Made by a program: the position numbers and the translations under genes
The notes under the pieces: generated by a model
Seen by the model: only the letters and a program-made list of their open reading frames with translations
What the model was told of the DNA's origin: nothing
Databases searched by the model: none
From: Scenedesmus sp. PABB004
Lineage: Eukaryota
Direction: 5' to 3'
NCBI GenBank assembly: GCA_014905635.1
Contig: JABVCE010000022.1
Span: 186,001-250,000, forward strand
Length of the DNA stretch: 64,000 bases
Shown here: piece after piece, positions 1 to 62,071 of the stretch
How positions within the stretch are numbered: position 1 is the first letter of the stretch
Layout of the letters: each line of letters begins with the position of its first letter

Positions 1-1460
1 GCGCGGCGGCGCCGCCGCCGCCCAGCACGCGCCCCCGGCCCAGCGCGCCCCAGTATGCGCCAGGCGCCTGCTGCTCCTGCTCCTGCTCCTGCTGCTCCTC
101 CCGCTGCTCCCCTCGCTGCTGCTGCCCGCGCTCGCGGTCGCCCGACTGCCCCTCGCCCTGCCGCTGCCGGTCCGGCTTAAAAAAGGTGGCGATGCTGGGC
201 GTGCCGGGCGGCGCGGCGCGCCTGGCGCGCTTGCCGCCGCCCGCCCCCGCGCTGCCCCCGCTGCCCCCCGCACCGGCCGGCTTGTCCGGCTCGGCAATCT
301 TCACCCACTCGCCGCCGCAGTGCCGCGCGTGCGCGTGGAAGCCGCAGCGCGCGTCGCCGCAGTACGCGCCGGGCGCGCCCGCGGCGACCGCGGCGGCGGC
401 GCCCGCCTTGGTGTACGCCCTGCGCGGCGGCGCGCGCGGGGCGGCGCCCCCGCTCGGCGCGGGCCCGGCACGCACGCCAGCGTGCAGCGAGGAGCGAGTG
501 CGCGCGCGCGTGCGCGCCTGCAGTCGGCCTCCTGCGGGCGCCGGTTGGTCGCGCGGCGCAGCTCGTCGCCGCAGCGCGCGCAGCGCCAGACGTGCGTGCG
601 GTACGCGGCGACCTCGGCAAGCATGGTGTGGCACACGCTCACGTTGTAGCCGCCCGGCGGCCGCTGCGCCGGGGCGGGCCAGGGCGGCGCGGGCGCGGGC
701 GCGCTCGCAGCGCGCGGCGGCGGCGCCGGCGGCGCGCGGCACCGCGGCGTGCAGCTCTGCGGCGTGTGGCTGCGCGGCGCGCGGCTCCGCGGCGCGCCTC
801 GTGGTCGGGGCACGTCGCGGCGTTGATGGCGTGCATTGCCGCCTGGAAGCGCGGCCCGTGGTCGCCGTCGGCCGCGTGGTCGCCGGACAGGAAGAGGCGC
901 GCGTGGATCATCTCATGCAGCAACGTGTCCTTCAGGTCGCGCAGCGGCCTGGCGGCGAGGGCGGCGCGGCGCACGGGCGGCGCGGGCGGCGTGGGCGGCG
1001 CGGGCGGCAGAGCGCGCCCCGCGGCCGCGGCGCGCGGTGGCGCACCGGAACTTGATCAGCGGCTCGGACAGCCGGATGCGGCACCCCGCGCCGGGCGCGA
1101 AGGAGCACTGCCCCGCGCAGCTGCGCGCGGCGGCGGGCGCGCGGCGCAGCGGTCGGCGCGGCGCTCGCGCGCGCGGGGCCTGGGGCCAAGCGCCGCCCTC
1201 GCGGCTGCGCGGCTGGGTGCGGCGCGGCGGACGTTGCCGCACAGCGTCATGCGGCGGCTCGACCACTCCACGCTGCAGGCGCCGAGCGCGCGGTTGAAGT
1301 AGACGGCGTCGTAGTGCTGGAACAGGGCGTGCAGCGAGAAGCCCTCCACCGCGTGCGCCTCGCTCTCCTCGCCCAGCCCCGGCTGCGTGCAGCGGCGCCA
1401 TGCGCATGGGCCCTCCTCGCCCTGCCCCGGCGGCGGCGCTGCGTGCGGCGGCGCCGCCAT
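1..1460 (-). CDS. SPRTN: SprT-like DNA-dependent metalloprotease (Spartan family); 3' end runs off the window start
   Basis: Spliced exons read LFQHYDAVYFNRALGACSVEWSSRRMTL|CAGQCSF...IRLSEPLIKF|RPLRDLKDTLLHEMIHARLFL...HGPRFQAAMHAIN|...HVWRCARCG...HARHCGGEWVKIAEP: HExxH motif plus SprT zinc ribbon. ATG at 1460 is tentative. Confidence 0.9.
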
Positions 1461-1876
1461 GCGGCGGTGGGCGGCCGTCGGTCGTGCGCAGAGGAGCGGC
1501 GATGTGGGGGCGGCGCTGTGGGGGCGATGTGGGGCCGGCGGGTGGCGCGGCCGGTGCAGGTGGCAGCTGGGCCGCGTCGTTTGCGTGTCGCGTGCGGTTG
1601 AGCGGAGCGCTCGATGCACCGGGGCGGCGTCCGGCCGCGCCTCCATTCTCTTCTGCTGCCACACCATCAACACCATCACCACCAGCCCGCCGGCCCTCGC
1701 ACACTGTGCCGGGCGCCGCAGCAGCAGACGCCGCGCAGCAGCGGCGGCAGCAGCAGCAGCCGCTGGCGTCCGCCCTGCTGGTCGCTTCGTCGCACACCGC
1801 TCCGTAGCGACCTCCGGACACGCCGGCCCCGTGCTCGCAGCGCTCACCGCGCGGGCAGCAGCAGATCGCTGGGCGA

Positions 1877-3138
1877 ATGGCCGGGCCCGCGCGGGCGCTG
1901 GCGCGAGGTGGGCGGGCCCGCGCGTGGCCAACCGCGCGCCGCCGGCGCGCCCGCTCACGCGCCCCCGTTGCCGCGCACCAGGCCTGCTGGCCGTCGCCAC
2001 GCGGAGCAGCAGCGGCGGCAGCGCGGCAGCTGCGGCGGCTGCGGCGCAGCAGCAGTGGCCGAGCGTGCTGAGGTGCGGGGCTGCTGGCCGACCCGCCCGC
2101 GCCGCCGCTCGCGCGCGCCAGCTCACGCCGCCGCCGCTCGTGCCGCTCGCGCGCCGCCGCCGCAGCCCGCTCGTGCACTCGGGCGGCGGGCGCGGCTTTG
2201 CCGCGCTCGCGGCGGCCGCCGGCGCGGCGCAGCGCTGCCACGCGGCGCTGCCGCGCCTGCTGCAGCAGCCGCCGCGCGGCGCGTCGGCGCCGCCGCCGCT
2301 GCCCGGCCTCGCGGCGGCGCGGCCGGCGCTGCTCGGGTGCGCCCCGCCAGCAGCGGCGCCGGCGGGGCAGGCTGTGCGGTGCTTTGTGCTGATGCCGCGC
2401 CGGGTCAAGTACCGCAAGGCCCACAAGAGCGTGGGCTTCAACGAGACCATCTGCCCCAACACGCGGCAGCTCGCGTTTGGCCTGTACGGCGTGCGCGCGA
2501 TGGAGCACTGCCGCATGCCGGCGCGCACGATCGAGGCCGCGCGGTGCGCCGCGCCGCGCGCGCGCCGCTGCCCCACGCGCGCCGCGCTGCTGCCCATGCG
2601 CGGCGCCCGCGTCGAGCTAACCCAGCCCCGCCGCCGCGTCGTCGGCCCTGCAGGCGCACGCTGCGGCGGCAGATCAAAAAGACGGCGATGCTGTGGATCC
2701 GCATCACGCCAAATGTGCCCGTCACGAGCAAGCCCGCCGAGGTCCGGCCCCGCGGCGGCGGGCGTCGCCGCGGCCGCGGCCGCGCGCACGACGCGGCGCA
2801 GCGGCCAGCGCGCCGCTGCCCCCTCCCTCTCACACCCACTCGCACCCGCACGCCCACACCCACGTGACCCCAGGTCCGCATGGGCAAGGGCAAGGGCACG
2901 CTCGACTACTGGGCCGCGCCCGTGCGCCCCGGGCAGATACTGTTTGAGATGGACCGCGTCTCCCGCGCCGACGCGCTCGCGGCGCTGCGCAGCATTCAGG
3001 CCAAGGTGCGTGCGCTGGCGCCAAAGCGCGGCGGGGGCCGGTTCTCACAGAGTCGGGCGTTGGCGGCGGCGCGACCGCCGCCTGCCTGCCCGCGCCCCGC
3101 AGATGCCCATCAAGCTCGGCTTCGTCGAGTGGAGCTGA
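1877..3138 (+). CDS. MRPL16: Nuclear-encoded mitochondrial ribosomal protein uL16m, 6 exons
   Basis: [12 protein letters not shown]...[10 protein letters not shown]...[53 protein letters not shown]. The RMGKGKG L16 signature follows a long Ala/Arg-rich presequence. Confidence 0.92.
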
Positions 3139-4127: not shown

Positions 4128-7100
4128 TCACGGCTCCGAGCCGCACGCGCTGCTCCCGTCCTGCGAGTCGCGGTCGTCGCCGATCGCCGGCGCGGCCGCG
4201 GGCGCGGCCGCCGCCTGCAGCGCCGCCGCGGCCGCGCGCCCCGCCGCGGTGCTCGGCCTGCTGCCGCCCGCGGGCTCCTCCGCCACGGCGCCGCCGCCGC
4301 CGCCGCCGGGCGCGGACAGCGCGGCGGGCGAGTCGCAGCGGCGGTTGTCAATTTCGGCGAGGTCCGCCGCCGCCTTGGCCTCGGCGGTCGCGAGGCCGGC
4401 CTGCTCCTTCCAGTAGTCGACCTGCTTGCGCAGCCTGCGGCGCGGCGGCGCGGCGGCGCTGTGGCGCGGCGGCGCGAGTGCGCGGGCGCGCAGGCACGCC
4501 GGCGAGGCGCCGCCGGCTGCTGCCCCGCGCGCCGCAGCGCCGCCGCTGCCCGGCCCCCCGCCTGCCCCCCGGCGCGCGCACCGCAGGACCTCCTTGTTCG
4601 CCTCGTCGCGCGCGGCGCTGTTCTTGATCGTGCGCACGCGCGTCGCGTAGACGAGCGAGTTGGCCGACTCGTCGAGGTTTGCGTCGGTGGGCGAGACGTT
4701 GACAAACATCAGCGCCTTGGCGTTGCCGCCGAGGCAGTCGCTCATGAGCATGGTGAGCTTGTGGTTCCTGGGGGGTGGGGGGGTGGTGGGCGGCGGGGGG
4801 AGTGGTGTGAGTGAGGGTGAGGGAGAGGGAGAGAGAGGGAGAGAGAGAGAGAGGGAGAGGGAGAGAGAGGGAGAGAGAGAGAGAGAGAGGGAGAGGGAGA
4901 GAGAGGGAGAGAGAGGGAGAGAGGTGTGCGCAGGCGTGCGCCAAGCGCGCGGCGCCCTGCGCGCGGCGCAGGGCGCGGCGGCGCGCGCCTGTAGGGGATG
5001 TGGGGCTGCTCCGCCGCGAGCGCGCTGATGACGTCGCCGAGCGCGGAGAGGCTCTTGTTGATCGCCTGCGCCTCCTTGAGGCACTCGCCGGTGCTGCCGC
5101 TCTTCTTCACGCTGCGCATGGGTGGGTGTGGGCGTGTGCGGGCGCGTGGGCGGGCGGGTGCGTGGGCGGGCGCGGGTGGGAGCGCAGGGCCACGGCCCGC
5201 CAGGCCCCCCAGCCGCTGGCGCCCGCGCCGCGCCAGCCGCCGCGCCGCCGCCCCGCCGCCGCGCAGCCCAGCTGCTCAGCTGCCCGCGCGCTGCCCAGCT
5301 GCCGCCGCGCGTCCGGCCGCACCGCTCGCTGCCTGCGAGGTCGACGAAGGAGAGCTTGCCCCGCGTGACGGCCTGGCTCTGCAGGTTGACGCCCTCGAGC
5401 AGGCAGCTGATGACGAGGTGGCTGCGGCTGCTCTCCCGGTTCATCGCGGTGCTGCTCGTGTGCCGCCGCGCGAGGCCCTGCGACGCGCGGCGCGGCGCGG
5501 CGCGGCGCGGCGCGGCCGTGCTGGGTGTGTGCGGGCGCGAGCGCAAGGGACGGCCGCCGCCGGCGGCCGAGGCCGGCGCGGCGCGGGCGGCGGCGGCGCG
5601 GCGCGCGCCTGCTCGACCGCGGCGAGGAGCTGCGCCGCGCTGGAGACGTGCAGGTCGGTCGCGCCCGCGACCGTGACGACGCCCTTGGGGTCGCGCTTGA
5701 TCTCGAGCCGCGGCGCCTCGGGGGCGCGCGGCCCGCGCGGCGCGCGGCCCGCCGGCTCCGGCAGCAGCAGGTCCATGAGCGTGTCCTGCGGCGCGGCGGC
5801 GGCGGCGGCGGCGTGAGTGAGTGTGTGAGTTTGTGTGTTTGTTTGTGCGTGCGTGTGCGTGTTGGCCAGGGCGCCCGTCAACCCCCGGCCCAGCCACGCC
5901 CCCGCCCCTGCCCGCCGCCGCACCTGGTACAGCTCCAGCATCTGCAGGCGCACGCTGTAGCTCGCCTTGCCCGCGTCGGCCTCGATCAGGCCGAACAGCT
6001 CGCCCACGCCGCGCGGCGTCAGCCCCGGCGCCGCCGGCGTGCCGTAGATTGTGTGGGTCTTGCCGCTGCACGCGGCGGCGCGTGGGCGGCGAGGCGGGCG
6101 CGGCGGGCGCGGGCGGTGAGGAGGGGCGAGGCGCGCGCGGGTGGTGAGGAGGGGCGCGGCACGGCGAGGCGGGCGAGGCGAGCGGCGCGGCGCGCGGGCT
6201 GCGAGCGCGGTGCGCGCGGCGCGGCGCGGTGCGAGCGAGGCGGCGGCGCGGCGCGGCGCGTGCGCGCGCTTGCCTGCCGGTCTGGCCGTAGGCGAAGACG
6301 CAGACGTTATAGCCGTCGAGGGCGGAGCGCATGAGGTGCCGCGCCTCGGCAAAGACCTCGTCCTGCGGCGGGCACGGGCACACGCGCGCGCGGCGGTGGG
6401 GGGCGGCCGTGTGCGAGCGTGGCACGGCGCGCTGCCCCGCCCAGCAACCAGCCCGCCCGCCCGCCCAGCAACCAGCAACCAGCCCTCCCGGCCCGCGCGC
6501 ACCTGGCCGGCCTGCGGGCCGAACACGGCGTCAAAGTCGTACTCCCGGGGCTTCTTCTCGTCCTTCCACGCGTGGGCCACGGTCAGCTCGTTGGGCACGG
6601 AGATCGCGGGCACCTGGGGTAGGGGGGGGGGGGGGGGGGGGCGCGGGGCGCGGCGGCGGGGCTCGGACGGGGCTGGGCGCGGCGCGGGCAGAGCCGCAGA
6701 GCCACCCGGGGAGGGGGGGGGGGGGGGCACAAGGCGAGGCACGCGAGCGGCTCGACACCCACGCGGCCCGCGCCTGCTTCTTGGCGGCCTCAAAGTCCAG
6801 CATCGGCCGCAGGCGGCAGTAGACCCGGATCTTGCCCTTGGCGTCCTGCGTGAGCGGCGTTTGGCGGCGGTTCAGCCGCACCGGTGCCCAAGGGATCCAA
6901 GGACGCGGCGGCGCGGCCTCCGCGGCGCTGCGCCCGCCGCCGCCGGGTGGCGCGCGGGGTCACCTGCAGCGCGTTGTGCGCGCGCTTGCGCGCCACCACC
7001 TCCTCGCGGTACAGGCGGTCCAGCTCCTCCAGCCGCCGCGCCTGGCAGGCGGCGCGTGTGCAGCGGCGGCGCGTGGGCGGGCTGCCGCGGCGGCAGCCCC

Positions 7101-10100
7101 CCCCCCTCCCCAAAGAACACAGGCGCAGCCCCCGCGCTGCAGCGCCCACCTGGTTCTCAATGATTGCCGCCTGCTGCCGCTCCTTGCGCTCCACGTCGCG
7201 CTTCAGCTCGCGCAGCTCCTCCAGCTCCGCCGCCTCGGCGCGCGCCTGCGGGCGCGGCGCGCGCGGCTCAGCGCAGGCGCGCCGGCGCCGCAGCTCCGCC
7301 CCACCTCCTCCCGCCGCGCCGCCGCCGCCCTCCGCGCGCCCCCGGCACGGCGCCCGCGCGCCGCGCGCGCGGCCTCACCGCCTGCACCTCGCCGCGCAGC
7401 TCCTCGAGCTGCGCCGCGCTGTGCGCCGCCGCCTCCATGAGCTCGGCCAGCCGCTCGCTGCGCGCCTTGAGCTGCCCCCGCAGCTCCGCCGCGCTCGCCT
7501 CGTACGCGTCGCGCAGCTCTGCGGCGGCGGCGCGCGCCGGCGGCGGTGAGCGGCGGACGGCGGGCGGCTGCGCAGCGCCGCCGCCCACCCCAGGCACGCA
7601 GCCCGCCCGCAGCGGCCGCCGTGCCGCGCAGCTGCCGCCCCGTCCCTCTCAACCCCCGCAAGGCCTCGCGCTCTCTCTCACCCTTGGCCTCGCTCTCCTT
7701 GCTGCGCTCGAGGCGGGTGACCTTGCGCTCCAGCAGGTCGCGCTCGGCGGCCGCGCCCTCGCACGCGCGCTGCGCGGCCGCGGTGCGCGCCTGCGCGGTG
7801 CGGCACGGCGCGGCGCGGCGGCACGGCGCGGCGGTGACGCGCCGCCAGCAGCGGGGCTCCCTGGGCGCGCCGAGGCCTGGGCTGGCCCGCCCGCGCCCGC
7901 GCCGCCGCCGCTGCCCACCTGCGCCTCCTCCAGCTCGCGGTGCTTCGCCTCCAGCAGCCCCTCCAGCTCCGCCAGCCGCGCGTACTCCACCTCGGCGCGC
8001 CCGCTGTGCTCGGTCGCGAGCGAGCTCGCCGCGGTCAGCGCCTGCGAGCGCGCGGCGCGCGGGCGGGGCGGAGCCGTGTGCGAGCGCCCGCGCGCGGGGC
8101 AGGCGCGCGCGTGCCGCGGCCGCGCCGGCTGCGCCGGCCGTCCTTGCTGCGCCGCCGCCGCCGCCCGCCGCAAGCACGACACGCACACTCTTCGTCATGT
8201 CCAGCTCGTTCCGCATCTCGCCCAGCTGCTGCTGCGCCGCCTGCAGCGCGTCCTGCAGCCCCGCGCGGCTCGCCGCCTCCCCCGCCATGAGCTCGCGCAG
8301 GTCGGCCAGCTCGCTCAGCAGCGCCTCGTTCTCAACGCTGCGCGCAGCGCGGCGCGGGCGGCGTGCAGAGCGCGGCGTCGGCCGCGGGGCGGCGGGCGCG
8401 TGCCGCGGCGGGGGCCGCCCTCGCCTCCCCGTCCCCAGGCCCCGTGCGCGCGCGCCGCGCACCGCGCCGCGCCCTCCGCCTGCTGCGCCGCCGCGAGCGC
8501 GGCCTCTGCGCGCTCCAGCTGCGCCGCCTGCTCCTTGAGGTGCTCCTCCATCTTGGCGCTGTACGCCGCGCTGCCGCCGCCGCCGGCGCCGCCGTCGCTG
8601 CTCGCGCGCGCGTCGCCCGCCGCCTTGACCTGCGCGGCGCGCGCGATACCCCGGGGGAGGAGGAGGGGGTGAGGCCCCCGCGACCCGCCGCCGCGACTGC
8701 CACCAGCCCCGCCGCCGCGCGGGCCGGCCGCGGCGCGCTGGCGGCAGAGAAAAGCAGCAACTACCCTCACGCTGCGTGACGGGCCAAAACTAACAAGAAA
8801 CCAGCTATCAAAATGACAACAAGCTAACAACACACGCGCGCCTTGGAGTATCGCTTCATCATGATGTCGTTGATGTGCGTCTGCAGCGCCATGCACACGT
8901 CCTCGCCCTGCCGCGTCTCAAACTGAAAGATGTGCAGCACGCCCGCGACGCGCATCTTGAAAAACACCGCCTGGCTGCTGCTCCCAAACTGCGGCGCCGC
9001 GGCGGCGCACGCGCGGCGGCGCGTGGCTGATCGTTGGTGCGGGCGCAGGGCTCGCCTGGCCGCGCTCGAGCGTGACTGCGGCGCCGCCGCCCCGCCGCCG
9101 CCGCCCCGCCGCCCGCCCCGCCGCCACAGCGCCGCGCGGGCGGGCGTCCGCGCCTGCATGATGTCGCGCAGCTCCGCCGAGTGGAGGTACTCCTTGGGCA
9201 CGGGCCTGAAGAAGTGCACGCCGCGCTTGTTGATCCCCAGGATGAGCCGCGGCGGCAGCAGGCCGATCGGGTCCTCGATGCGCCGCACGGCAAAGAAGGT
9301 CGCGTTGCCGTACGGCAGCGTGCGCAGGATGCGCATGAACTGCGTGCGCGCGTCCTCCTTGCTGTGCTGGCACAGCGCCTTGTACCTGCGCGCGCGCGGG
9401 CGCGGGCGTGCGCGAGTGTGTGAGCGGGCGCGCGCGCGCGGGTGCGGCGGGGCTCGTGGGCAGCGCCGCGGGGGCGCAGCGCCGCGCGGCGCGCCGCGCG
9501 CCGCGCCGGCTCACCGCGCGCCGACGTCGGCGCGCCACTCGTCGCGCGGCGCGTCATGAGCACCTGCCGCGTGACGTAGCGCTCCACGCCCGCGAGCAGC
9601 GCGTCGGGGTCGGCCTCCAGCCCGGGGCCGTGCTCCGCGTGGATCTGCAGCGCCGCCATCTGCGCGGCGCGGTGGGCCGCGCGGGCCATGCGCCGCTCAG
9701 CGGTCAAACGTCGGTCAACAAACCGAAAAACTAATGACATAACAACATGACGTCACGCGCACCTGCGCCGCGTCCTCGCGCACGACGGGGTAGTTCCCCG
9801 CGAGGTAGTCGTGCTGCGCCTGGACGTAGCTGAGCGCGATGAACTGCGGCTCCGTGATCGCCTCGTCCGTCTCCCTGCAGCAAGAGAGGGGAGCGGGAGG
9901 GAGAGAGGGACGGAGAGGGGCGGGCGTGGGCGTGGGCGCGGGGGCGGGGCGCGGGACGCGGCCGGCGGCGCGCGCAAGCCCCCGCGCCCACGCCCACGCC
10001 CGCCCTCGCCGCCGCCCGCGCGTGCCCCGGCGCGCGCCTGAACATGCGCTTCTTGAACAGCAGCCGGCTCTGGCAGCCCTCGCGCGCGGCGCGCGGGTGG

Positions 10101-15212: not shown

Positions 15213-16344
15213 GCGCGGCGGCGCGGCGGCGCGGGGCTGACGAGCGCGGAGGCGCGGGCGCGGGGCTGACGAGCGCGGGGCGGGCGGACGCGGGGCGGGC
15301 GGGCGGGCGGACGCGGGGCGGGCGGCGGAGCAGCAGCGGAGCGGCGCGCGGGCGGCAGCGGAGCGGCGCCCCTGCGCCGGCGGCGGCGGCGCGCCTTGTG
15401 GCGGCGCCGGCGGGGCGGCGGGCGGGGCGGGCGGCAGGAGGGGGCGGCGCGCGGGGCGCTGGGACGCGCCCCGGCAGCGCGGCACGGCCGAGCTGGAGCG
15501 GGCTGAGCGCCTTTTTTTGTGGCCGGCCACATCGCACGGCGGCGGCGGCGCCACGCGGGCGGCCGCGCGGGCGCCGCCGCGCGCGCGCAGCAGGGGCGGG
15601 CCCCTCACTAGCCGGGCGCGGCAACGTGGCGAGTGTGGGCGTGTGGTGCGTGGGTGAACGTGGGTGTGCATGGGGCGGGGCGTGTGTTGCTGCTGCTCGA
15701 ACCCTTTGTACGCCATCCTTTTGTACCATGCCGATCGATTGGTCCGTTTGATGCCTGCTCGCGTGCTTTTTACACGGTTGTGGCCGGCCGTGACCCCGGC
15801 GGCGGGGGGCGCGGCGTGTGCACGAACCCTGTCGGCGAGCGCGCGGTCCTTGCATGCACTTAGTGCGCTGGCGCGCATGCAGGCCAGGACTTGATCCGCG
15901 CGAGTTGGCGCCGTGCGGGGCGGCGCCGCGCCTCTCTTGCAAATCGAGCGGCAGTGACGCCCGCCGCCGCGGCTTGCTTTTCCGGCGCGGCCGCTCCCCC
16001 AGACACACACGGCTACTTGCGACGACAGCTCACATCTCCTCGACCGCCAGCCCTCTCGACCGCACGCCGAGCGACGCAGGTGCGATGCGCGCCAGACCGC
16101 GCCGGACCCGCGTATGGCGTCTAGGGGCCGCGGCGACGCTTGAGATAAGGGAAACATTACTCATCAAAGCTTACCGTCCAGCGATCGGCAGCGCGCGCGG
16201 CCTGGCTGCGCGGCCTGGCAGATGCCGAGCGTGGCAGGCCCTCCCCGCGCGCGCGGCGCCCCGGCCGTCGTGCTGCGCCTGGTGGGGGTCTCTTTGGTTT
16301 GTTCGAGCCTCACGGTTGCCCGCACGTCCGCGCAGGCGGTCGCC

Positions 16345-19325
16345 ATGCCGCGCCGGACCAGCGCCGGCGGCGCCGCGCTGCTGCTGCTCGCGGCGGGCGC
16401 GCTCGCGCTCGCGGCGGCGCAGCCGCAGCCCAGCCGGCTGGCCATGGACTTCAGCTGCAGCCTTATTGCGGCTCCCAGCGCTCCCGCGAGCGTGACGGCG
16501 CGCGTGGAGGCGCTGCTGGCCGACATGTCGCGCGACGGCGTGAACAACCTCTGCGCTCGCAGCCCCGCGCACGTGTGCGCCCCCGGCGCCACGCAGACGC
16601 TGGCCGCGGCGGCCGCGGCTGCCGCCGCCACGGCCTCCTCGCCGGCGCCCGCGCCGGCGGCGGCGTCGCAGCGCCGCCCCGCGCGCGGCTCGCTGCGCCG
16701 GCCGCTCGGCATCCATGTCGACCTCAGCGCCGGCGGCGCCGACATCACCTTCGGCGCCGACGCGGCGCCCGCCGTTGCCGCCGCGCCCGCCGTCGCTGTG
16801 GCGCCCGCCTTTGCCGCCGAGCCCACGATCGCCGCGCCCGCGAGCGGCTGCACGCTCTGCGCGCCGGCCGCGACCGCGGCCGCCGCCGCCGCCGGCGGCG
16901 CCGCCGCGCCGCTCTGCGCGTGCGCCGCGCCGGGCGGCAAGACGCGCTGCACCTGCGCCGGCAAGCTCAGCGGCGCGGAGTACTTCAACTCCAGCTGGTA
17001 CGGCGTCGAGCTCGCCCGCGTGGTTGTGGAGTCGGTCGGCGGCGCGCACGCAATCACGGGCGTGATCAACGCCAACTTCAACTCCACCGTGCGCCTGAGC
17101 GGCAGCAAGCTGGTGCGCGCGGCGCGACGCGACGCGGCGCGACGGGGGCCCCGCCGGCGGCCGGCGCACGGCCCGGAGCGCGGCGCGCCCACGCCGCCGC
17201 GCCGCCCGCAGACGATCGGCCGCGCCGCGGGCGCGTCGGGCCAGGACGGCGGCGGCGACCTGGAGCTCGATGAGAGCTTCCTGGTGCGGCGCCGGCGCGG
17301 CACTGACCCGCTCCACTGCGCTGCACCGGCCCGGCCGAGCCTGCGAAAAGGACACTGATGCGACCATCACCGCCGCCGCCGCCCCTGCCCGCGTGCTGCG
17401 CAGGACCTCCTGGATGGCTCTGAGCTGGCGCTGGTTGACAACGGCGACCTGGAGGTGGAGGACGCAGGCGGGCTGTGGATGGCGGGCGCCTCCAAGCTGG
17501 TCATCAGCCAGACCAGCAACGCACAGACGCAGGCGCGGAGGCGGCGCCGCGCCGGGGGCGGCCCGCTCGCGCGCGCGCCAGCTGACACGCGCCTGCGCCG
17601 CGCCGTGCCGCGCAGCTGGCCCACATCCTGGTCGAGGGCGGCAGCAGCATCGTGGTCGAGAAGGCGTCCGAGTGGAACGTGACACAGGAGTTTGACTTCA
17701 CGCCCGCCGCGGGTGAGCGCAGTGCGCGCGCCGGGTCATGCCGGCCCACAGAGCGCCGCACGTGTTCCCTCGGCCGACCGCCGCGCCGCGCCGCGCCGCG
17801 CGCCACCTGCCGCGCCGCCGCCGCAGCCGCGGCGGTGTGCAACGCGCCGTTTGCGCCCGACGCCGCCGCGGCGGCGTGCTTCGGGGACAAGGCGGCCTGC
17901 CGCGCGCGGCTGGACGTGCTGAGCGGCGCTGAGAAGCAGTCCATCGGCATGCTCGCTTATCCGCCCGCGCTCGACCGCTGGGGCCGGCAGGCGTTTGACT
18001 ACAGCGACGACGCCGTCTACGACGGTGAGCGGCCGGCGCCGCGCCGGTCAGCACGCACCGGCCCCGCGCCGGGGCCTGCCGCTCACACCGTTGCGCCCCC
18101 GCCTCCGCCCATGCGCGCCGCCAGACTACTATGACGTTGACTACAAGGAGCCACAGCTCGAGGCGGGCGAGTGCCTCGGCCCCGACGTGTGCGGCGCGGC
18201 GACCGCCAAGGCGCACCTCCCCTTCCTGCTGCACGGCCGCCGCCTGGCGCAGGCCATGCCCGCGCCGCTGCCGGCCGACGGCGACGCGAACGACGCCGAC
18301 GCGAGCGGCGCCAACGCCACCGACGCCGACACCGCCTCGCCCGCCGCGCCCGCCGCGGCCGCTGCGCCCGCCGCGCCCGCGGCCGACGCCGACGCGGACA
18401 ACGGCGCCGGCTACCTGAGCACGGCCGAGGTCAACGTCAAGGACACGCCCGACGGCTCGGGCTACGACCCTGCCTGGGGCGAGGGCCCGTACGGCGAAAA
18501 TCTCTGCGACGCGCCGCCCGGCCGGTCGTTCAACTACTACGGGTGCGCCGCGCCGCCGCCGCCGCCGCCGCTGCCGCCGTGCCGCGACGCGAGCCCTCCT
18601 CGAGGGCGCGCGCGCTGGCGGCCGCGGGCCCACCACGGCGTCACCAAACGCCCGCCCGTCGCGCCCGCCCCCGCCCCGGCCTCTCCAGCATGGTCGTGCG
18701 GCAGGGCTCGTCCATCCGCGTGTCGTCGGGGTCGGCCTGGTCCCTGTTTGACCAGAGCCGCGTGTTCATCATCGATTCAGCGCTCATGCTCGAGGGCGGG
18801 TCGCGCCTCGCGCTGCGCAACAGCACCCTCGTGCTCATCAACTCCACGCTCACCGTCTCGGGCGCCTCCCAGGCGCGGCGCCGGCGGTGGCAGTGGACGG
18901 CGCTGCCGGCGCGCCGCGCCCGGTGGCGCTTGACCGGCGTCGCCGCCCGCTCGTCTGCCCGCCCGCAGATCACCATGGAGCGCTTCAGCGGGCTGCACCT
19001 CTTCAACAGCCGCCTGCTCGGCGACAGCGCCCTGTTTGCGGTGCCGGCCAACTCGACCTGGGGCGGCGCGCCGTGGCTGCAGCGCGGCGACTACCGCGCG
19101 AGCGCCGGCGGCGGCCTGCCGACCGCGATGGGCGCGCGCGCGGGCGTGCAGCTGGGGAGCTACCCGCTGCGCGTGTTTGGTTTTGACCTCGACGCCCGCC
19201 TGCTCGCGCCCGTGGGCTGCGACTGCAAGGCGCCCAAGACCGCGATCAAGGCGGCGCCCGCCGTCACGGCCTGGCCGTCCGCTGACGGCGAGGGCTGGGC
19301 TGGGCCGCTGGAGGGCCTCATCTGA
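16345..19325 (+). CDS. Secreted Cys-rich / beta-solenoid-like protein of unknown function, copy 1 (8 exons, about 740 aa)
   Basis: Signal peptide MPRRTSAGGAALLLLAAGALALAAAQ. Exons 16345-17112, 17212-17283, 17404-17532, 17616-17712, 17827-18024, 18125-18542, 18689-18872 and 18969-19325 splice in frame. Several NxS/T sequons. Confidence 0.8.
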
Positions 19326-42175: not shown

Positions 42176-44823
42176 ATGGTGAGCCGGGAGCCGGCAGCAT
42201 GAGAGAGCGCCGCGGGCCGCGTGCGCCGTGCAGCAGCAGCGGCGCGGGCCGCGCGCCAGCAGTGGCGATCCGCGGCCGCCGCCGGCGTCGCCGCCCTGAG
42301 CCGGCCTGCCTCCCGCCCGCGCGCCAGGATCCGCTGCAGTTTGGTGCGGAGGACGCGCCGCTCGACGCGCCGCCGGCCTGCGCGAACGGCGGCGCCCCCG
42401 CGGCCGCGGCGCCCCCGCCGGGCCCGCCGCCGCCGTACGAGGCGGTCGTGTCCGACGCGGCGGGCAGCCACAGCATGGCGGCGGGCCCGCCCGCGGCCGC
42501 GGCGCCCACGGCCGCGCCGGCGCCCGCGCCCGCGCCCAACGGCGGCGCGGCCGCCCCCGCGGCGGGGCCGAGCGCGTTTGAGATCACCGTCGCCGACCCG
42601 GTGAAGCAGGGCGAGGGCGTGTCGGCGTACGTCTCGTACAAGGCGCGGCCCGCGCCCGCGCCCGCGCGCGCTGGCCCCGGCCGCGCGCCCCTGCGCCGCG
42701 CTGCGCCGACCGCGGGCCGCCGCCGCCGCCGCCCGCGGGCCGCCGCGCGGGCGGGCGCAGGTGCGCACGCGCACGTCGCTGCCGCAGTACAACCGCCCCG
42801 CGGCGGAGGTCATCCGGCGCTTCCGCGACTTTGCCCACCTCGAGGCGCAGCTCGGCGAGCGCCACCGCGGCGCGATCGTGCCGCCGCTGCCGGAGAAGAA
42901 CGCGGTGCAGAAGTTCCAGATGGCCGGCGAGTTCATCGAGGAGCGCCGCGCCGCGCTGCAGGTCCGCCGGCGGGGGGTCGCCGGGCCGCGCCCGCCCGCC
43001 GGCGCGGCGCGCGCCGCGCCGCAACACGCCCCGCGGCGCCGTGCGCGCGCGCCCAGGTGTTCCTGAACCGCGTTGCGGCGCACCCGGTGCTGTCCAAGAG
43101 CGCGGAGCTGCAGCTCTTCCTGGAGGCGACCGAGGACACGTGGGCGGTGGAGATGGCGCGCGCGCAGGTGCCGCGCGCGCCCGCGGCACGCCGCGCCCGC
43201 GCGCCGCGCCGCGCCGCGCCGCGCCGCGCCGCCCCGCGCCGCGCCGCGCCGCGCCCGCCGAGAGCCCCGCGCCGCGCGCCGCAGGCCGCCGCCGCGGGCG
43301 CGGGCGCGGGCGGCGCGGGCGGGCCGAAGAAGCGGCTGGAGGACGCGGTGGGCTGGATCAAGGGCCTCGGCGCGGCGGCGAGCAGCATCGTGGGCGGCGG
43401 CGGCCGCGCGGTCGACGCGGCAGAGGACCCAGAGTATGTCAAGGTGAGCTGTCGCCGCCGCGCTGAGCTGTATGACATTGTTGTGTGCTGTGTGCGGAGA
43501 GGGGCGTGCGCCGCGCGCCCGCCCAGCCGCGCGTCCCGCGCTCCCCCGCCGCCGGGGCGGCAGGTGCGCGACTACCTGCTGGCGCTGGAGAGCCACCTGG
43601 CCGAGGCGCACCGCCAGGCGGCGCGGCTGACGACCAAGGAGGCGGAGCTGGGCGAGGCGACGCTCGAGTTTGGCCAGGCGCGCCGGCGGCGGCGCGCTGC
43701 GCGCCCGCGCCGCGCGCTGCGCCGGCCCCCGCCGAGCGCGCGCCGAGCGCGCGCGGCCGCCCGCCCGCCCGCCCGCCGCAGGCGCTGGAGCGCCTCGGCC
43801 GCCTGGAGGAGGGCAACGTGAGCGAGGCGTTTGCGCAGGTCTCGGCGCGCGCGGGCGAGCTCGTGGCGGCGCGGCGCAAGGGCTGCGAGGCGCTTGGCGC
43901 GCGCTTCGAAGCTCCGCTCAAGGAGGCGGTGCGGCGCGGCGCGGCGCGGCGCGGCGCGGCGCGCGCGCCAGGGCCCGGGCGCCGCGCGCTGCCGCGCCGG
44001 CGCTGCCGCGCCGCGGGGCCGACCCCGCCGCCGACCCCGCCGCCGCGCAGGTGCGCAGCGTGCGGTCGGCGACGGCCGTGTGCAACGACCGCGCGCTCGC
44101 GCTGGGCGCGCACCTGGCGGCCAAGCAAGACCTGGACGCGAAGAAGGTGTGGCTGGGCCGAGAGCCTCGGCGGCGACGCGCGCGGACGTGCGCGGCGCCG
44201 CGCGCAGGCCACAGTGCGCGCGTGCGGCGCGCCCGCCGCCGACGCGGCGCGGCCGCCGGCGGCGCGCGCAGGTGCGCTGGGCCAAGCTGCGCGGCACGCC
44301 GGGCAGCCCGCCGGAGAAGCTGGCCGAGGCGGAGCGCGAGGTGCGCGCCTGGCGGGGCTGGCAGCCGCTCGCGCGCCGCGCGCCGAGCTGCTGCTGCTGC
44401 GGAGCGCCGCGCCGCTCTGAGGCCTGCCTAGCATGACGCCCGCCGCGCGCCGCCGCGCCGCAGGTGTCCGAGGCGGAGGCGCGGCTGCGCGACAGCCGCG
44501 TCGCGTACGAGGAGCTGGTCGCGGTCATGACGGAGGAGCTCAACCGCTGGCAGAAGGAGCGCGCCGCCGACATGAGCGCGCTGCTGCGCGACTTTGCGCT
44601 CGCCCAGGTGCGCGCAGGGCCGCCCACGCCCGCGGCGCGCTCGCGGGGCGCGGGACGGGCGCGCGCAGCACGGCGGCGCGCTCACCCCACGCCGGCGGCG
44701 GCGCCCGCCGCCGCGCAGGCGTCCATGGCGAGCGAAGGCGTGCGCGCGTGGAGCGGGCTGCTGGCGGAGCTGCAGGCCGTCGCGGGCGGCGGCGCCGGCG
44801 GGGCGGGCGCCGCGGCGCGCTGA
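42176..44823 (+). CDS. SNX1: Sorting nexin (PX-BAR, SNX1-like), 11 exons
   Basis: FEITVADPVKQGEGVSAYVSYK|VRTRT...VIRRFRDFAHL...IVPPLPEKNAVQKF...EFIEERRAALQ|VFLNRVAAHPVL; BAR end MTEELNRWQKER. First coding exon is probably only ATG (42176-42178). Confidence 0.92.
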
Positions 44824-45026
44824 GCCCTCGCGCGCGTTTCCAGCTCGCGGTTATTACCTTCCGCCGCTCCAAACAGGCCGGCCGCTCCCTGCGCCGCCCG
44901 CGGCTCGCAGCTCGCAGCGGACGCCCGCCAGTTCGGGGCCAACCGCCGCCGTGCCGCCGTGTCCAGCCCGCCCGCCGTCGCCGGCAGCTGCCCTGCGCGC
45001 CCGTGGCCGGGCAGCTCCACCGCAAC

Positions 45027-49420: not shown

Positions 49421-49530
49421 GCGCCGCGCTCAGCCCCAGACCGCGCCGAGCTCAGGCCCAGTCCGCGGCGCGCTCAGCCCAGTCCGCGGCGCTCAGCGCC
49501 CGCGCCGCGCTCAGGCCCAGACCGCGCCGA
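49421..49530 (-). repeat. Four to five imperfect repeats of the APX stop-codon region
   Basis: gctcag(g/c)cccag(a/t)ccgc at about 49428, 49450, 49472 and 49509, partial at 49491. Confidence 0.75.
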
Positions 49531-50992
49531 GGGCGGTGAGCTTGGCGTACGCGGCGGCAAAGTCTGCGAAGAAGGCGGCGCTGTCCGAGGCGTAGCGCGC
49601 GATGAGCGCCGCGCACGCCGGGTCGTCCGGGAGCGCGTGGTCCGAGGGCAGGCCGATCATGCCGGCCATGGGGTCGGCCGCGTTGAGCCAGGGCTTGGCC
49701 AGCAGCGCGGTGTAATACGCGGTGTCAAAGGTCACGGGGTCGCCAAAGCCCTTGCCGCCTGCGCGCGCGCGCGCGGGGATGTGTGTGGGCGCGCGGTGGC
49801 GGCGGCGGCGGCGCGGGCGGTGCGGGCTGCGGCGGCGGCGGCGGCGGCGGCGGCGCGCGCACCGAGCGTGTGCGCGCCCGACAGCGCGACGAGGTCTGTC
49901 ACGCCGAGGCCCTTGTCCGCAAAGTTTGAGATCAGCGCGGCCACGCCGGCGCGCTCCGAGGCCATGCGGCCGGGCGGGTCGGGCCCGCCCGCGTCGGCGC
50001 GGCCGACCGGCACGGGGATGGCGGGGCCGCCGCAGACCGCGACCGCGTGCGCGCCGGCCAGGGCGATGAGGTCGGCGTATGACACAGACCCCTCGCCCGG
50101 CGTGCCCTTCAGCGCGTCCGCGACCTGCCACCAGGGGCGGCGCACCGAGCGACGCGCGGCGCGGCGACGGCGGCTGTGGCGCGGGCCGCGGCGGCGGCGG
50201 CGGCGGCGGCGCGCGGCAGCGGCAGCGAACGCGCAGCGGCAGCCGCGGGGCGCGGCGCGCGCCTGCTCGATGAGCCGCCAGCCGCGCTTGAGCCCGGTGT
50301 TTTCGGGCCGGTCCAGCTCAAAGCGCACGCTCGCGTTGGCGCCGCCGTCGCCGGCCGCGGCGCTGTAGGTCGCGGCGTCGTGGTAGGCCAGGCGCAGAAT
50401 GACGGGCGCCTGCGGCGGGGCCGCGCGCGGGCGCGGGCGGGCGCGCGCCGCGTGAGGCCACCCGCCCCCGCCCCCGAGGGCGGGGGCGCGCCGCGGCGCC
50501 GGGCCCCCAGCGCTGCGCGCCGGGCGGGGGCGGCGGCAGCGCACCTTGGGCTTGGTCACGACCTGGGCGAGCGCCTTGGCCACGGCCGCCGCCGCGTCGG
50601 GCGGCAGCGCGCGCGGGCCCGCCGGCGCCGCGGACGCCGCGGGCGCGCCCGGCCCCAGCGGCGGCGCGGCCCACGCGCCCAGGCCCGCGGCCAGCAGCGC
50701 GCTGCTGGGCAGCTGCAGCAGCAGACCGCGCCGGCCCAGGCCGGCGGGTGCGGCGCCGGGCGCTGCGCGCGGGCGGGGCGGTGAGAGCAGCGCCAGGCGT
50801 CACCGCTCGCCGCCGGCGCAGGCATGTGTGCGGGCGGCGATCAGGGTCACCTGGTGGGTCGCTGTCGCTCACGGCCGCCCGCACCACGCGGGCACTGGGG
50901 CGCCGGCGCGCGCAGGGCGGCGGTCCGCTGCTGCCGCCGCGCGCTGCGGGCTGGCGGGCGACGCAGGGGCGCAGAGAGCTGACGCAGCGCAT
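49511..50992 (-). CDS. Plastid ascorbate-peroxidase-related heme peroxidase (APX6/APX-R type), 5 exons
   Basis: APVILRLAYHDAATY...GGANASVRFELDRPENTGL, SYADLIALAGA, LVALSGAHTLGGKGFGDPVTFD, MIGLPSDHAL. The GAHTLGGKGFG loop deletion is typical of APX-R. Confidence 0.9.
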
Positions 50993-51425: not shown

Positions 51426-52832
51426 TCAGGCGTACTTGGAGTCGCCAATGATGTGGCCGCCAAAGAAGGGCGCGATCTCGACCACCACCTGGCCATACTC
51501 CACCGGGTCGCCCTCCTCCGCCTTGTACGATGCGAGCTCACCCGCCTGCGGCGCCTGCGGGCGTGCGTGCGTGCGGGCGGGCGGGCGGGCGGCGGCGGTG
51601 GGCGGGCGGGGCGGGCGTGGCGGCGCGGGCGGGAGCGCTGCTCGCGCTGCGAGAGCTCGACCCCGAGCCCCCCTCGCGCGCTCGAGCTGCCTCGCGCGCT
51701 CGAGCTCCCTCGCGCACCTTGAGCTCCACAAAGGTCCCCAGCTGCTCCACGTAGCCCAGCGTCTGCCCCTTCTTCACGGTGTCGCCCACGTTGGCCACGT
51801 TGCCCTGCGGCGCGCGCGCGGGCCGCGCGTGTGGGCGCGCGTGCGGCCGCTCGCCGCGCCCGCCGCCGCCCGCCGCGCCCGCCGCCGCCCGCCGCGCCCG
51901 CCGCGCCCGCGCCCGCACCTTGCCGACCTTCTTGCCCGCGGCGTACTTGCCGCGCCGGAAGACGCCGACCTGCGGGCGCCCGGCGGCGAGCAGCGGCGCG
52001 CGCGGGCTCGGCGGGGGCGCGGCGCCGCGCAAAAAGCGCCGCGCTGGGGCACGGCGCGGCGGCGCCGGCGCGCCTTGGGCGCCGTGACGGGCAGCATGCC
52101 CTCGTCCACGCTCTCCTCCGGCACGGCGCGGTCGTCCACGCTCACGTAGGCGACGGGCGCGGCGGCCGCCGCAAACGCGGGCGGCGCGGGCGCGGCGACC
52201 ACCGCCGGCGCCGGCGCGGGCGCGGGCGCGTCGATGCTGCGCCGGACCTTGAGCTGGAAGCTGCCCATCTGCGCGGGGCGGGGCGGGGCGGGGCTGGGCC
52301 GGGGGCCCCCGCAGCAGCGCGGGCGCGACGCGGCGCGCCGCGCCGGGGGCCGCGCCGGAGCGGCCGCCCCACCTTGAGCTCCATCTCCGCGATCTCTGTG
52401 TCCGCCACCAGCGTGTTCAGCAGCTGCTGCACCTGCGGCGACGCGGCGCGGCGGCGGCGGGCCTCGGCGCCCGGCAGCAGCGCCAGCGCCGCTGCCGGCG
52501 CCGCCGCCGCCGCGCCGGGCGCCGCGCGCCGCCGCCGGCGCGGCGGTACCTCGGTCGTGGAGGGAGCCACGTCGGGGCCGTCGGTGAAGGCCTCCGGGGC
52601 TGCGCGCGGCGCGGGCGGGCGCGCCAACGCATGCGGGCGCTGTCAGGGGAGGCCGCGGCGCCAGGCGGCCCCGGCGGATGGCGCGGCGCGCACCCTCAGA
52701 CTTGGTGGCCGCCTCCTTCTCCTTGACCGCCCGCGCGGGCTGAATGCGGGCGCCAGCGCGCGGGGTGATGGCCGCGCCCGCGCCCCGCGCGGGGCGCGCC
52801 AGCCGGCTGCAGCGCGACGCCGCGAACGCCAT
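51426..52832 (-). CDS. BADC: Biotin attachment domain-containing (BCCP-like, non-biotinylated) plastid ACCase subunit, 7 exons
   Basis: DTEIAEMELK|MGSFQLKVRR...VKKGQTLGYVEQLGTFVELK|APQAGE...GDPVEYGQ...APFFG. The EAMKLM biotinylation motif is replaced by EQLGTF. Confidence 0.88.
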
Positions 52833-54597: not shown

Positions 54598-55151
54598 ATG
54601 GACCGCCTGTTCGACCGCGCCTTCAACAAGGCGCACGGCGTGGTCCACGCCGTCACGGAGGAGGCGTCCCGCGACCTGGCGCGCGAGCGGCAGGCCAGCA
54701 GGGAGCAGCAGCTGCGCGCCCTGAGCACCCCCATGACGGCGGAGGACGTGGTGGAGCGCATCGGGCTGGCCTTCAAGGACGGCGACTACTTCAGGCGCGC
54801 AGCAGCGCAGCAACCCGCGCGCCGCCCGCGCGCCGCCCGCGCGCCGCCCGCGCACCAGCCGCTCGAAGCGCCGCGCGCCGCGCAGGCTGCTGCAGCTGCC
54901 CGCGCCCACGCTCAACGGCCTGGGCCGCGCCGAGTGGGGCGTGAGCGGCGGCGAGGTGAGCAAGGCATACCGCAAGCTCTCCATCCTGGTGCACCCGGAC
55001 AAGGCGCCTGGGCCAGCAGCACGCGAGGCGTTTGAGCAGCTCAAAGCGGCGTACTCGGAGCTGCGCGACCCCGACAAGCTGGTGCGACGCGCTGCCGGCC
55101 GCCTGGGCGGCAGCCAGGCGCGCGCCGCGCCGCGCGCCGGCCGGCCACGCA

Positions 55152-55662: not shown

Positions 55663-55766
55663 GCGGGGCCGGCAGCTGCAACACGCGGCGCCCCGCGCGG
55701 GCGGTATTGGGCCGGCGGGCGCTGAAACAGGCGCCGCCGGGACGCCCCTGTGCTGCCGCGAGCAAC

Positions 55767-60210: not shown

Positions 60211-60513
60211 TCACCGCACGCCGGGCACCGGTGCCACGCCGCCGTCCGTGACGCGCCAGCGCTCGACAGGGCCGGTGAAGCCCGCGCCCTGCACCCGACG
60301 GGGCAGGCGAGCGCCACGTCAGCGGAACGTCAGCGTGGGCGGCACACGCAGCGCGCAGCACAGCGCAGCGCTCCACCTGCCACTGCAGCAGCACCTCCGC
60401 CGGCTGCGGCCCGCGCGCCAGCGCCGGCAGCGCCTGCCCCGACGCCAGCACCGGCATCAGCAGCAGGCGGTGGGTGACAGACTCCTGGCGGCAGCGGCAG
60501 CGGCGGCGGCGGC

Positions 60514-60551
<38 letters not shown>

Positions 60552-62071
60552 TCGCCACGAGCGCCGCGCTCGCGCCGGGGCCGGCCCGCCGCCGCGACCC
60601 GCACCTGCCACGGCTGCGTCAGCACCTCGCGCTGCAGCAGGCGCGAGCCGGCGGCGCCGTCGTCCAGCCACACCCACGCCTGCTTGCTCGCGACCACGGG
60701 GCAGCGCAGCGCCCCCCGCAGCTCGCGCAGCAGCGCCGCCGCGGCGCCCTGCACGCGCTGCGCGTCCGTGCCGCCGCCGCCGGGCTGCTGCGCCGCTGGC
60801 GGCGGGGGCTGCCACGCCGCGCGCCGCGCCGCACCGCCGCCGGCGGCTGCCCTGTCCTGCCAGATGAAGGCCGCCACGTCGTCCAGCAGCAGCAGCCGGC
60901 AGCGCGCCTGGGCGTGGCGTGGGCCGGAGGGGGTGTGGGCCGCGGGGCGCAGGGGCGTGGGCCGCGGGGCGGCGTAGGCCGCGGGGCGGCGTGGGCCGGC
61001 GCGCCGGCCAGCGCGCGCGCGGCGGCGGCGCCGTCCACGCGCCTGTGCCGCCGCGAGGTGCTGCGGCAGCGCCGCCAGCGCGAGCAGCAGCTCCACGCTG
61101 CTGAAGCAGCGCACCTGCGCGGCGGCACGGCAAAGCAGAGCGGCGGTCAGGGGCACCGTTCAGGCGGCAGCGCCGGGCGGGGCCTCGGGGCGGCAGCAGG
61201 CAGGCAGGCAGGCCCCTGGCCCGAGGCCCGCACCAGGTGGATGCGCGAGAGCGCGGCCTGCAGCGTCACCGCCGGCTGGGCCCCCGCCCCTGCAGCCGCG
61301 CGCAGCGAGTGAGCGCGGGCGCGCGTGCCGGCGCCGCGCGTGGTGAGCGCGCGCCACCGCCGCACCCACCCGGCTGGGCCGCCGTCAGCCGCCGCTGCAG
61401 CACCTGCGCACCGCGCGGCGGCGGCGCGCGTGCTCGGTCGCGCGCACAGCGTGCCGGTCAGGGCGCGCCCCCCGCCACTCACCTGCATCAGCCGCAGCAC
61501 GTCAAACTTGCCGTCGCAGTCGATGACCACAACGCAGCCTGCGCGCGCGGTAGCCGGCGCAGCGAGCGGCGCGGCCGGCGGGGAACTGCTGCCGCCGCGC
61601 CGCGCACGCAGCGCCCTCGCAGCGCCCGGCGGGCTGGCGCGCTGGTGTCTTTTACCAGCGCCCCTCCCCCCAGCGCACCGTCGCTCGCCGCCTGGGCCCC
61701 CGCTGGCGCGCCCGGCGCCGCCGCTGCTGCGCTGCACGCCAGGCTCGCGGCGACCTGCGCCGTCGAGCGGGCGGCCTCGCCGGCCTGCGCTGCACCAAGC
61801 GCGGCGACCGTGCCGCCCCTCCGCGCGGCCGCTGTGGCTCCGGCCCAGCGCCCCGCACGCGCGCCTGCGTGAGAATCTCGGTCTTGGCGGCGCCCGCGGC
61901 GCCCACCAGCTCCAGCACGTGCCCCGGCCGCAGCGTGGCGTAGGCGTCAAGGAACGGCACGCCCGTGGGGACGGCCTCCTGCTCCTGGCGAGCCAAGAAC
62001 TGCGCGGCGGTCTCGTCCGGAGCGACGCACGCGGCGAGCAGCGCGGCGGCGTGCTGCGCCGCGTCGTCCAT
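60211..62071 (-). CDS. XRCC2: RAD51 paralog XRCC2, about 9 exons
   Basis: PDETAAQFLAR...TGVPFLD...GHVLELVGAAGAAKTEIL, VVVIDCDGKFDVLRL, RIHL|VRCFSSVELL, LLLLDDVAAFIWQDR, WQ|ESVTHRLLL. Confidence 0.85.

Follow-up and report, generated by a model that had tools for sequence, protein, structure and literature searches.

Removal of predicted GC–AG introns recovers conserved peptides in three genes of the GC-rich green alga Scenedesmus sp. PABB004

We analysed a 64-kb stretch of nuclear DNA (hereafter, the window) from the scenedesmacean green alga Scenedesmus sp. PABB004 (contig JABVCE010000022.1, positions 186,001 to 250,000). Among its genes are those for a KCBP-type kinesin, a thiamine-diphosphate (ThDP) enzyme and a sorting nexin (SNX), and our subject is the introns of this DNA that appear to begin with GC in place of GT. 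The genome comprises 39.8 Mb with 78.5% G+C and 7,092 genes (PMC12571836), and the portion of that report considered here is silent on introns and splicing. G+C is 79% along the whole window, in which the dinucleotide GC accounts for 21.5% and GT for 3.6%. With so few stop codons, each of the six frames runs open for hundreds of codons at a time, and an open reading frame therefore says nothing about coding here. Gene order was taken from a codon-periodicity map together with Pfam matches on candidate exons. Two public proteins match the window letter for letter, namely KIN14I from Scenedesmus sp. PABB004 (P0003, in 26 blocks) and SNX1 (P0271).

A first-pass annotation of this DNA had proposed 24 GC donors, and the first two intron bases are indeed GC at all 24 coordinates on the strand given for each. 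AG precedes 23 of them, the exception being 31714 (CG/GCACGC; here and below a slash marks the splice junction), and 22 of the 24 read AG/GCGCG. Counted on both strands of the window, AGGCGCG occurred 100 times, against 109±10 in dinucleotide-preserving shuffles. The corresponding GT heptamer, AGGTGCG, occurred 44 times against an expected 18.6±4.3, a count that 0 of 100 shuffles reached. Since AGGCGCG is as common as chance would have it, a manual reader can find AG/GCGCG near almost any exon end; the motif alone is therefore uninformative, and a test by homology was needed.

Ortholog-anchored junctions in three genes

The KCBP kinesin, the ThDP enzyme and the sorting nexin, with 43 introns in total, were tested against orthologs. 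For each exon pair, all in-frame, stop-free GT–AG and GC–AG junctions near the exon ends were considered (and only these dinucleotides), and each joined peptide was scored by local alignment against 10–12 orthologs, several of which have transcriptome-assembly names in their sources. GC–AG introns made up 12 of the 43 (28%; Wilson 95% confidence interval 17–43%; p ≈ 1e-13 against an expectation of 1.2%), i.e. 7/25 in KCBP, 3/9 in the ThDP enzyme and 2/9 in SNX. These 12 ortholog-supported donors are exactly the sites proposed earlier in these genes, no further GC donor was found in the three, and the share equals or exceeds the earlier estimate of about one intron in five. Ten of the 12 GC junctions lead by 124–1161 or face no GT candidate (Table 1). 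Judged by comparison of protein sequences, GC–AG junctions are needed to restore conserved sequence in all three genes: the 12 junctions combine GC…AG termini with a removal that restores a conserved reading frame. The window also joins a G+C above ~65% (79%) to a GC–AG share of ~20% or more (12/43). Three motifs on which the first-pass reading had leaned, HIPYR/NHKL, YVSYK/VRT and ACD/GYAR, were restored in the ortholog scoring by the GC donors at 4988, 42643 and 31714, respectively.

In KCBP, the peptide FKKRMFRETDE, which needs the GC donor at 10037, is present in 15/15 orthologs. HIPYR/NHKLT, GQTGSGKT and RDIMQ/FGSS likewise come back with the GC donor alone. At 8841, a rival GT donor 6 nt downstream would add two residues; this intron was assigned a GC donor because the two-residue insert is missing from 15/15 orthologs, all of which read RYSK-x-K. 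Read directly, intron 24 has its first ~200 nt free of GT and ends in a pyrimidine tract and CAG. The tract itself is a ~130-nt CT-rich (CTCTCC-type) microsatellite at 4800–4930 on the (-) strand. GT scored higher at 17 other KCBP introns. At intron 8, GC and GT seemed to tie because the preceding exon lacks one base: at 9514–9560 (-), either the assembly has apparently lost 1 bp or the frameshift is genuine. Orthologs read VLMTRPRDEWR.DVGAR at this place, and the window has VLMTR in one frame, an ortholog-like continuation in a shifted frame and a donor G/GTGAGC at 9514.

In the ThDP enzyme, orthologs are contiguous across the WEASK/GCPPF junction at 33341, and the remaining introns, the fourth junction included, take GT. 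GT donors were likewise assigned to the other 7/9 SNX introns, the tightest contest among them being 1887 versus 1862.

As a control, the procedure was applied to a metagenomic, Chlamydomonas-like KCBP locus (L079) with a gene G+C of 61%. Here, GC donors were called at 0/16 introns and GT donors at 16/16 (Fisher p = 0.03 against the 7/25 of KCBP in the window), and therefore the GC donors are not a product of the junction method itself. At 8 of the 12 supported sites, GC–AG is also the choice of the public models of this DNA (6 in KIN14I and 2 in SNX1).

Table 1. GC–AG introns and genes of the window. GC and GT numbers are the scores of competing junctions against orthologs; sites called proposed lie outside the three ortholog-tested genes.
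Feature	Position	Strand	Junction	Observations
KCBP intron 6	9875..10037	(-)	gttcag/GCGCGCGC	GC 2161 vs GT (10043) 1931; public model takes GT 10043
KCBP intron 9	8989..9153	(-)	atgcag/GCGCGGAC	RDIMQ/FGSS restored; GC 2510 vs GT 2160; in public model P0003
KCBP intron 10	8630..8841	(-)	tccaag/GCGCGCGT	GC 1527 vs GT (8835) 1512; in public model
KCBP intron 18	6614..6773	(-)	aagcag/GCGCGGGC	GC 1936 vs GT 1812; in public model
KCBP intron 20	6066..6273	(-)	cggcag/GCAAGCGC	P-loop GQTGSGKT restored; GC 2069 vs GT 1289; in public model
KCBP intron 22	5478..5608	(-)	gagcag/GCGCGCGC	GC 1595 vs GT 1370; in public model
KCBP intron 24	4768..4988	(-)	ctacag/GCGCGCGC	HIPYR/NHKLT restored; GC 2298 vs GT 1137; in public model
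ThDP-enzyme intron 2	31714..31823	(+)	gcgacg/GCACGCCG	GACDG/YAR restored; GC 2205 vs GT 1785; 12 orthologs
ThDP-enzyme intron 5	32722..32860	(+)	ccccag/GCGCGGCG	35 in-frame candidates, GT 0; best GC 1866
ThDP-enzyme intron 7	33341..33442	(+)	tccaag/GCGCGGCC	WEASK/GCPPF; 16 candidates, GT 0; GC 2151
SNX intron	42643..42760	(+)	tacaag/GCGCGGCC	YVSYK/VRTRT; GC 1906 vs GT 1600; 10 orthologs; in public model P0271
SNX intron	43678..43781	(+)	ggccag/GCGCGCCG	LEFGQ/ALERLG; GC 1782 vs GT 1427; in public model
SprT/SPRTN-like, proposed GC–AG	664..797	(-)		Parser path; only 2 in-frame GT alternatives
SprT/SPRTN-like, proposed GC–AG	420..517	(-)		Parser path; 2 in-frame GT alternatives
Tandem copy A, proposed GC–AG	17533..17615	(+)		Parser path; exact donor not discriminated
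Tandem copy B, same intron as 17533	21291..21371	(+)		Parser path; not independent of copy A
Tandem copy A, proposed GC–AG	18873..18968	(+)		Parser path only
Tandem copy B, same intron as 18873	22632..22727	(+)		Parser path only; not independent of copy A
WDR33-like, proposed GC–AG	26131..26270	(+)	TGVAK/VFKSN	Parser path; partial support
APX/TL29-like peroxidase, proposed GC–AG	50125..50262	(-)	RLIEQ/VADAL	Parser path; Pfam contiguity
BADC/biotinyl-domain, proposed GC–AG	51970..52073	(-)	VTAPK/VGVFR	Parser path; 20 in-frame GT alternatives
DnaJ-domain gene, proposed GC–AG	54795..54885	(+)		Parser path
XRCC2-like, proposed GC–AG	60908..61042	(-)		Parser path; sole 2 in-frame GT alternatives each delete 18 codons
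XRCC2-like, proposed GC–AG	61755..61864	(-)		Parser path; 11 in-frame GT alternatives
SprT-like protease (SprT/SPRTN-like)	first gene in order	(-)		
Ribosomal uL16	after SprT-like gene	(+)		
KCBP-type kinesin	4.1–12.2 kb	(-)		
Mpv17/PMP22	after KCBP	(+)		
Tandem pair of one multi-exon gene	16100–19350 and 19900–23100	(+)		Without Pfam family
WDR33-like	after tandem pair	(+)		
ThDP enzyme	after WDR33-like	(+)		
PsaE, TAF9, PX/Vps5 sorting nexin (SNX), endosulfine-like gene	after ThDP enzyme	(+)		
APX/TL29-like peroxidase	49514–50650	(-)		
Biotinyl-domain protein (BADC)	after peroxidase	(-)		
DnaJ protein	after biotinyl-domain gene	(+)		
XRCC2-like	after DnaJ	(-)		
M20 peptidase	last gene in order	(+)		

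Donor anatomy and the other proposed sites

The anatomy of the introns was described from the 43 verified introns of the KCBP, ThDP-enzyme and SNX genes. They are 91–221 nt long and have a G+C of 85.8%, compared with 75.1% in internal exons, with T at 7.9%, A at 6.3% and C at 45.1%. The acceptor is an invariant CAG, mostly CGCAG (C at -3 in 43/43, G at -4 in 38/43 and C at -5 in 35/43). Candidate branch sites are CCGAC (11 vs 0) and CTCAC (12 vs 1), both over-represented within the final 60 nt. Donors follow the consensus (C/A)AG/GTGCGC, from which the GC donors differ only in having C at +2: G at +3, C at +4 and G at +5 are found in 10/12, 11/12 and 12/12 GC donors and in 29/31, 20/31 and 28/31 GT donors, so that +4 is C in 31/43 donors overall, instead of the usual A. 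The first-pass consensus, AG/GCGCG at GC donors and GTGCG at GT donors, was thus seen in the verified genes. Its description of AG/GCGCG as atypical was not supported, as the motif is the genome's own GT consensus with T replaced by C at +2, and the heptamer is no more frequent than chance.

GC–AG introns usually compensate on the intron side, with the donor AG/GCAAGT. Here, such compensation as was seen at GC donors lies in the exon. The exon ends in AG before 11/12 GC donors and 17/31 GT donors (p = 0.033), i.e. GC donors account for 11/28 of the donors that follow AG and for 1/15 of the others. Classical intron-side compensation was found in one of the 12 (6273, GCAAGC), and the rest read GCGCG or GCACG, as in the local GT consensus apart from C at +2. 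GC introns had a median length of 149.5 nt and GT introns of 123 nt, a difference that was not significant (p = 0.07). U12-type introns have a donor consensus of RTATCCTT and the branch sequence TCCTTAAC (partly given in PMC3033335). No U12-type signs were seen: the 12 GC donors read GCGCG, GCAAG or GCACG, and the candidate branch motifs are CCGAC and CTCAC.

For the 12 proposed sites outside the three genes, we used a Viterbi parser that combines a three-periodic Markov coding model, an intron model and donor and acceptor matrices, trained on the three verified genes only. In leave-one-gene-out runs, 33/43 introns were exact, and the parser over-called GC donors, with 18 predicted against 12 true and 8 exact. 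Because stop codons are so rare, a run over the whole window fused everything into giant genes, and the parser was therefore used inside known gene spans only. There, it predicted 128 introns, 39 of them GC (30%, an inflated figure) and including 23 of the 24 listed sites; the earlier manual count of ~125 introns with 19% GC is compatible with these 128 predicted introns. The best path took all 12 remaining sites, compared with 11 of 78 other AGGCGCG sites (p = 5e-9), an agreement that is supportive at best, as it is not independent of the first-pass reasoning (both use frame continuity). In-frame GT alternatives exist for all 12.

Further support for these sites came from Pfam, the PDB and paralogs. 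At 50262, the Pfam peroxidase coordinates are contiguous (left exon to ~62 of the hidden Markov model (HMM), right exon from ~63), and the left exon aligns with PDB 3rrw_A as far as the junction. The exon before 26131 aligns to human WDR33 (PDB 6f9n_B) exactly to its last residue, 46, in a register consistent with the WD40 HMM; PDB searches with the WDR33-like exons were dominated by generic WD40 proteins. The exons flanking 797 match the SprT-like HMM (59–98) and PDB 6mdx (117–166), and the junction sits in an insert relative to human. The 54795 junction lies upstream of the J domain, of which HMM positions 14–58 begin at residue 21 of the next exon. Pfam searches with the exact flanking exons gave no coordinate contiguity for the XRCC2, BADC, DnaJ and SPRTN 517 junctions. 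In the tandem gene pair, the 17533/21291 interval is non-coding because the copies differ by a 2-nt indel inside it while the downstream frame is kept; upstream of the indel there is a single GT, use of which would remove 11 codons. At 18873/22632 the copies are identical, and the paralog comparison is therefore uninformative.

Known GC–AG systems and the origin of the GC donors

The first-pass statement that GC–AG introns amount to about 1% elsewhere is borne out by the literature, with ~1.2% across plants (PMC6310983) and ~1.3% across 61 eukaryotes (PMC3033335). The algal GC–AG share rises with genomic G+C, and these introns are 'extraordinarily abundant' in high-G+C species: 39.6% in Aureococcus anophagefferens, 22.2% in Micromonas pusilla and 7.7% in Chlorella sp. 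(Iwata & Gotoh 2011, PMC3033335). The window resembles these algae in joining high G+C to a GC–AG share tens of times the usual ~1.3% with AG acceptors unchanged, and its share (28%) lies between those of M. pusilla and Aureococcus. It differs from them in its chlorophycean (Scenedesmaceae) lineage and its still higher G+C (79% in the window, 78.5% in the genome). In Emiliania huxleyi, GC donors made up 56% of those at 241 manually mapped junctions, which was ascribed to G+C content, and ab initio models under-called GC donors and mispredicted junctions (Feldmesser et al. 2014, PMC4028052). High G+C, a canonical acceptor and gene models that fail at GC donors are common to both algae, but GC donors are the majority in E. 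huxleyi (56–60%) at 65% G+C, whereas GT donors are the majority here (72%) at 79% G+C. With ordinary U2-type GC–AG introns of plants and animals, those of the window share the GC…AG termini and, on the exon side only, a stronger neighbouring donor consensus, namely the exon AG (PMC6310983); unlike them, they are ~20-fold commoner than the ordinary ~1.2% and take the GCAAG form in only 1/12. Literature searches for GC–AG introns together with Scenedesmus and Sphaeropleales genera, and for the strain name in titles and abstracts, returned no report for this lineage; the supplements of PMC3033335 and PMC6310983, which perhaps list more GC-rich green algae, were outside their scope. The GC–AG habit is therefore known from other GC-rich algae, and the window is a solid new example of it, not a new kind of splicing.

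We consider it probable, from the sequence evidence above, that these are genuine U2-type (major-spliceosome) GC–AG introns and that they account for about one intron in four of this genome, with its 79% G+C. Most likely, extreme GC-biased mutation or gene-conversion pressure would keep turning T at +2 into C. Selection for T at this position would be weak, with C acceptable chiefly at donors that have AG at the exon end and G at +5, and ordinary U1/U6 pairing would still be sufficient with one mismatch when the other donor positions pair. With intron base frequencies as the neutral proxy, C/(C+T) is 85%, compared with 28% at +2, i.e. the odds of T over C at +2 are ~15-fold above the intronic background (S, the log odds, ~2.7). 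With a preference this weak, a quarter of donors can carry C under strong GC bias. Reliance on exon AG and on G at +5 would be expected of a site that standard U1 (later U6/U5) still recognises despite a single mismatch. We infer that splicing takes place at the GC donors in vivo, that these donors have a mutational cause and that U1 is unchanged. The canonical U1 5′ end is AUACUUACCUG, and an unchanged U6 carries ACAGAGA; an Rfam search of the 64-kb window gave 0 matches, with no small nuclear RNA in the window.

Several observations pull the other way. Ortholog support covers 12 of the 24 sites, the other 12 resting on frame continuity, the ab initio parser and partial Pfam, PDB or paralog support. 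By score alone, 8841 is nearly tied with its GT rival (1527 vs 1512) and is the weakest of the 12. The selection estimate treats intron base frequencies as neutral and comes from 43 donors only. KCBP shares 4 of its 25 intron positions with the L079 ortholog (16 introns), all GT in both; this amounts to 0/7 of its GC–AG introns and 4/18 of its GT introns (p = 0.29), a distribution that would also fit birth as GC introns. Finally, Micromonas RCC299 has 64% G+C but only 2.7% GC–AG introns (PMC3033335), and therefore G+C pressure alone does not explain the trait.

A further reading is that +2 is nearly free after exon AG, with either a U1/U1C/U6 surface shifted to a G-N-G-C-G donor or GC–AG introns that are preferentially newly gained at AG/GC. 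We hold this to be unlikely but not negligible; if true, either variant, together with lower-G+C sister genomes, would make this alga a tractable green model for studying why GC–AG introns can be so abundant, which has no explanation so far. Taken separately, co-evolved or relaxed machinery, as the first pass had suggested, would involve an altered U1 5′ end, U6 ACAGA box, U1C or Prp8 that makes C at +2 (and at +4) the matched base. The GT donors do depart from GTAAGT at +4 and +6 (C at +4 in 31/43 of all donors), and on their intron side the GC donors lack compensation of the AAGT type. Iwata & Gotoh called the origin of abundant GC–AG introns an enigma and suggested base modifications or U1 snRNP (small nuclear ribonucleoprotein) proteins, which likewise counts for such machinery (PMC3033335). 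The dependence of GC donors on exon AG is, however, as expected if pairing with standard U1 is limiting, and T at +2 is still ~15-fold favoured over C relative to background. Moreover, a changed U1 is not required, because Aureococcus and Micromonas have comparable GC–AG shares and the putative U1 5′ ends of Aureococcus and both Micromonas species are canonical (PMC3033335). Altered machinery is therefore distinctly unlikely.

We regard it as improbable that the GC–AG introns are mostly young, born with GC donors by gain at AG/GC proto-splice sites or by introner-like insertion, and not decayed GT introns. The uneven sharing of KCBP intron positions with L079 would fit such an origin but is not significant. 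The RDIMQ/FGSS junction, interrupted here by a GC–AG intron, is uninterrupted in 79 of 80 metagenome loci, but many of these are transcripts or come from intron-poor lineages; indeed, the 80 KCBP loci (L001–L080) are mostly of these two kinds, and L079 alone was usable for intron positions. Introner elements are a known feature of both M. pusilla and Aureococcus, the two published extremes. In the window, all-against-all blastn of 50 introns revealed no discrete intron family. An introner- or transposon-derived family was rejected on this comparison, in which the only matches (70–85%) were low-complexity GC repeats, in either orientation and in numerous registers.

The weakest alternative, that mis-modelled junctions or T-to-C assembly errors conceal real splicing at GT donors, draws on the chance frequency of AG/GCGCG, the in-frame GT alternatives at all 12 proposed sites and at least one apparent 1-bp indel of the assembly, which lies in a KCBP exon, but is highly improbable overall and excluded by the ortholog junction scores for the 12 verified sites, since GT alternatives there either are absent or would remove residues from, or add them to, conserved sequence, the control locus gave 0/16 GC donors, and it is implausible that T-to-C errors should hit precisely +2 in a dozen introns.

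Gene models and further features of the window

The first pass had warned that standard gene finders would mis-annotate this genome. Errors were found in both public models that could be mapped, KIN14I and SNX1, yet 8 of the 12 verified GC–AG introns are already in them. In the KIN14I model, use of GT 10043 instead of GC 10037 loses a conserved F-R, and the 1-bp frame problem is sidestepped by a GT donor at 9525. The SNX1 model (P0271, 1,039 amino acids; 41337–46000 on the (+) strand) merges three genes (TAF9, the sorting nexin and one farther downstream), retains the intron at 43168–43284 and, in place of the true last exon (from 44719), splices to 45391. Only the GT-10043 error in KIN14I is directly due to a GC donor.

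For ultra-GC-rich genomes, gene prediction must allow GC donors and use a species-specific model. With these results, the link between genomic G+C and GC–AG abundance reaches the Chlorophyceae and the highest G+C to date, and it takes on a quantitative form: relative to background, T at +2 is ~15-fold favoured, and hardly any C is accepted unless the exon ends in AG. The family also includes relatives of far lower G+C (genomes of ~57% are listed in PMC12571836), against which changes of donor from GT to GC could be polarised directly; for the classic cases this was not possible.

Two further features of the window are of note. The copies of the tandem pair are identical over kb-scale stretches (e.g. 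16140–16860) and nearly so over 17880–19380, with differences and indels clustered elsewhere; this near-identity suggests a recent duplication or gene conversion. In the peroxidase gene, the N-terminal exon matches best to lumenal TL29 (PDB 3rrw_A), and the long exon, which ends in ALSGAHTL, matches ascorbate peroxidases of the cytosolic type (residues 91–165).

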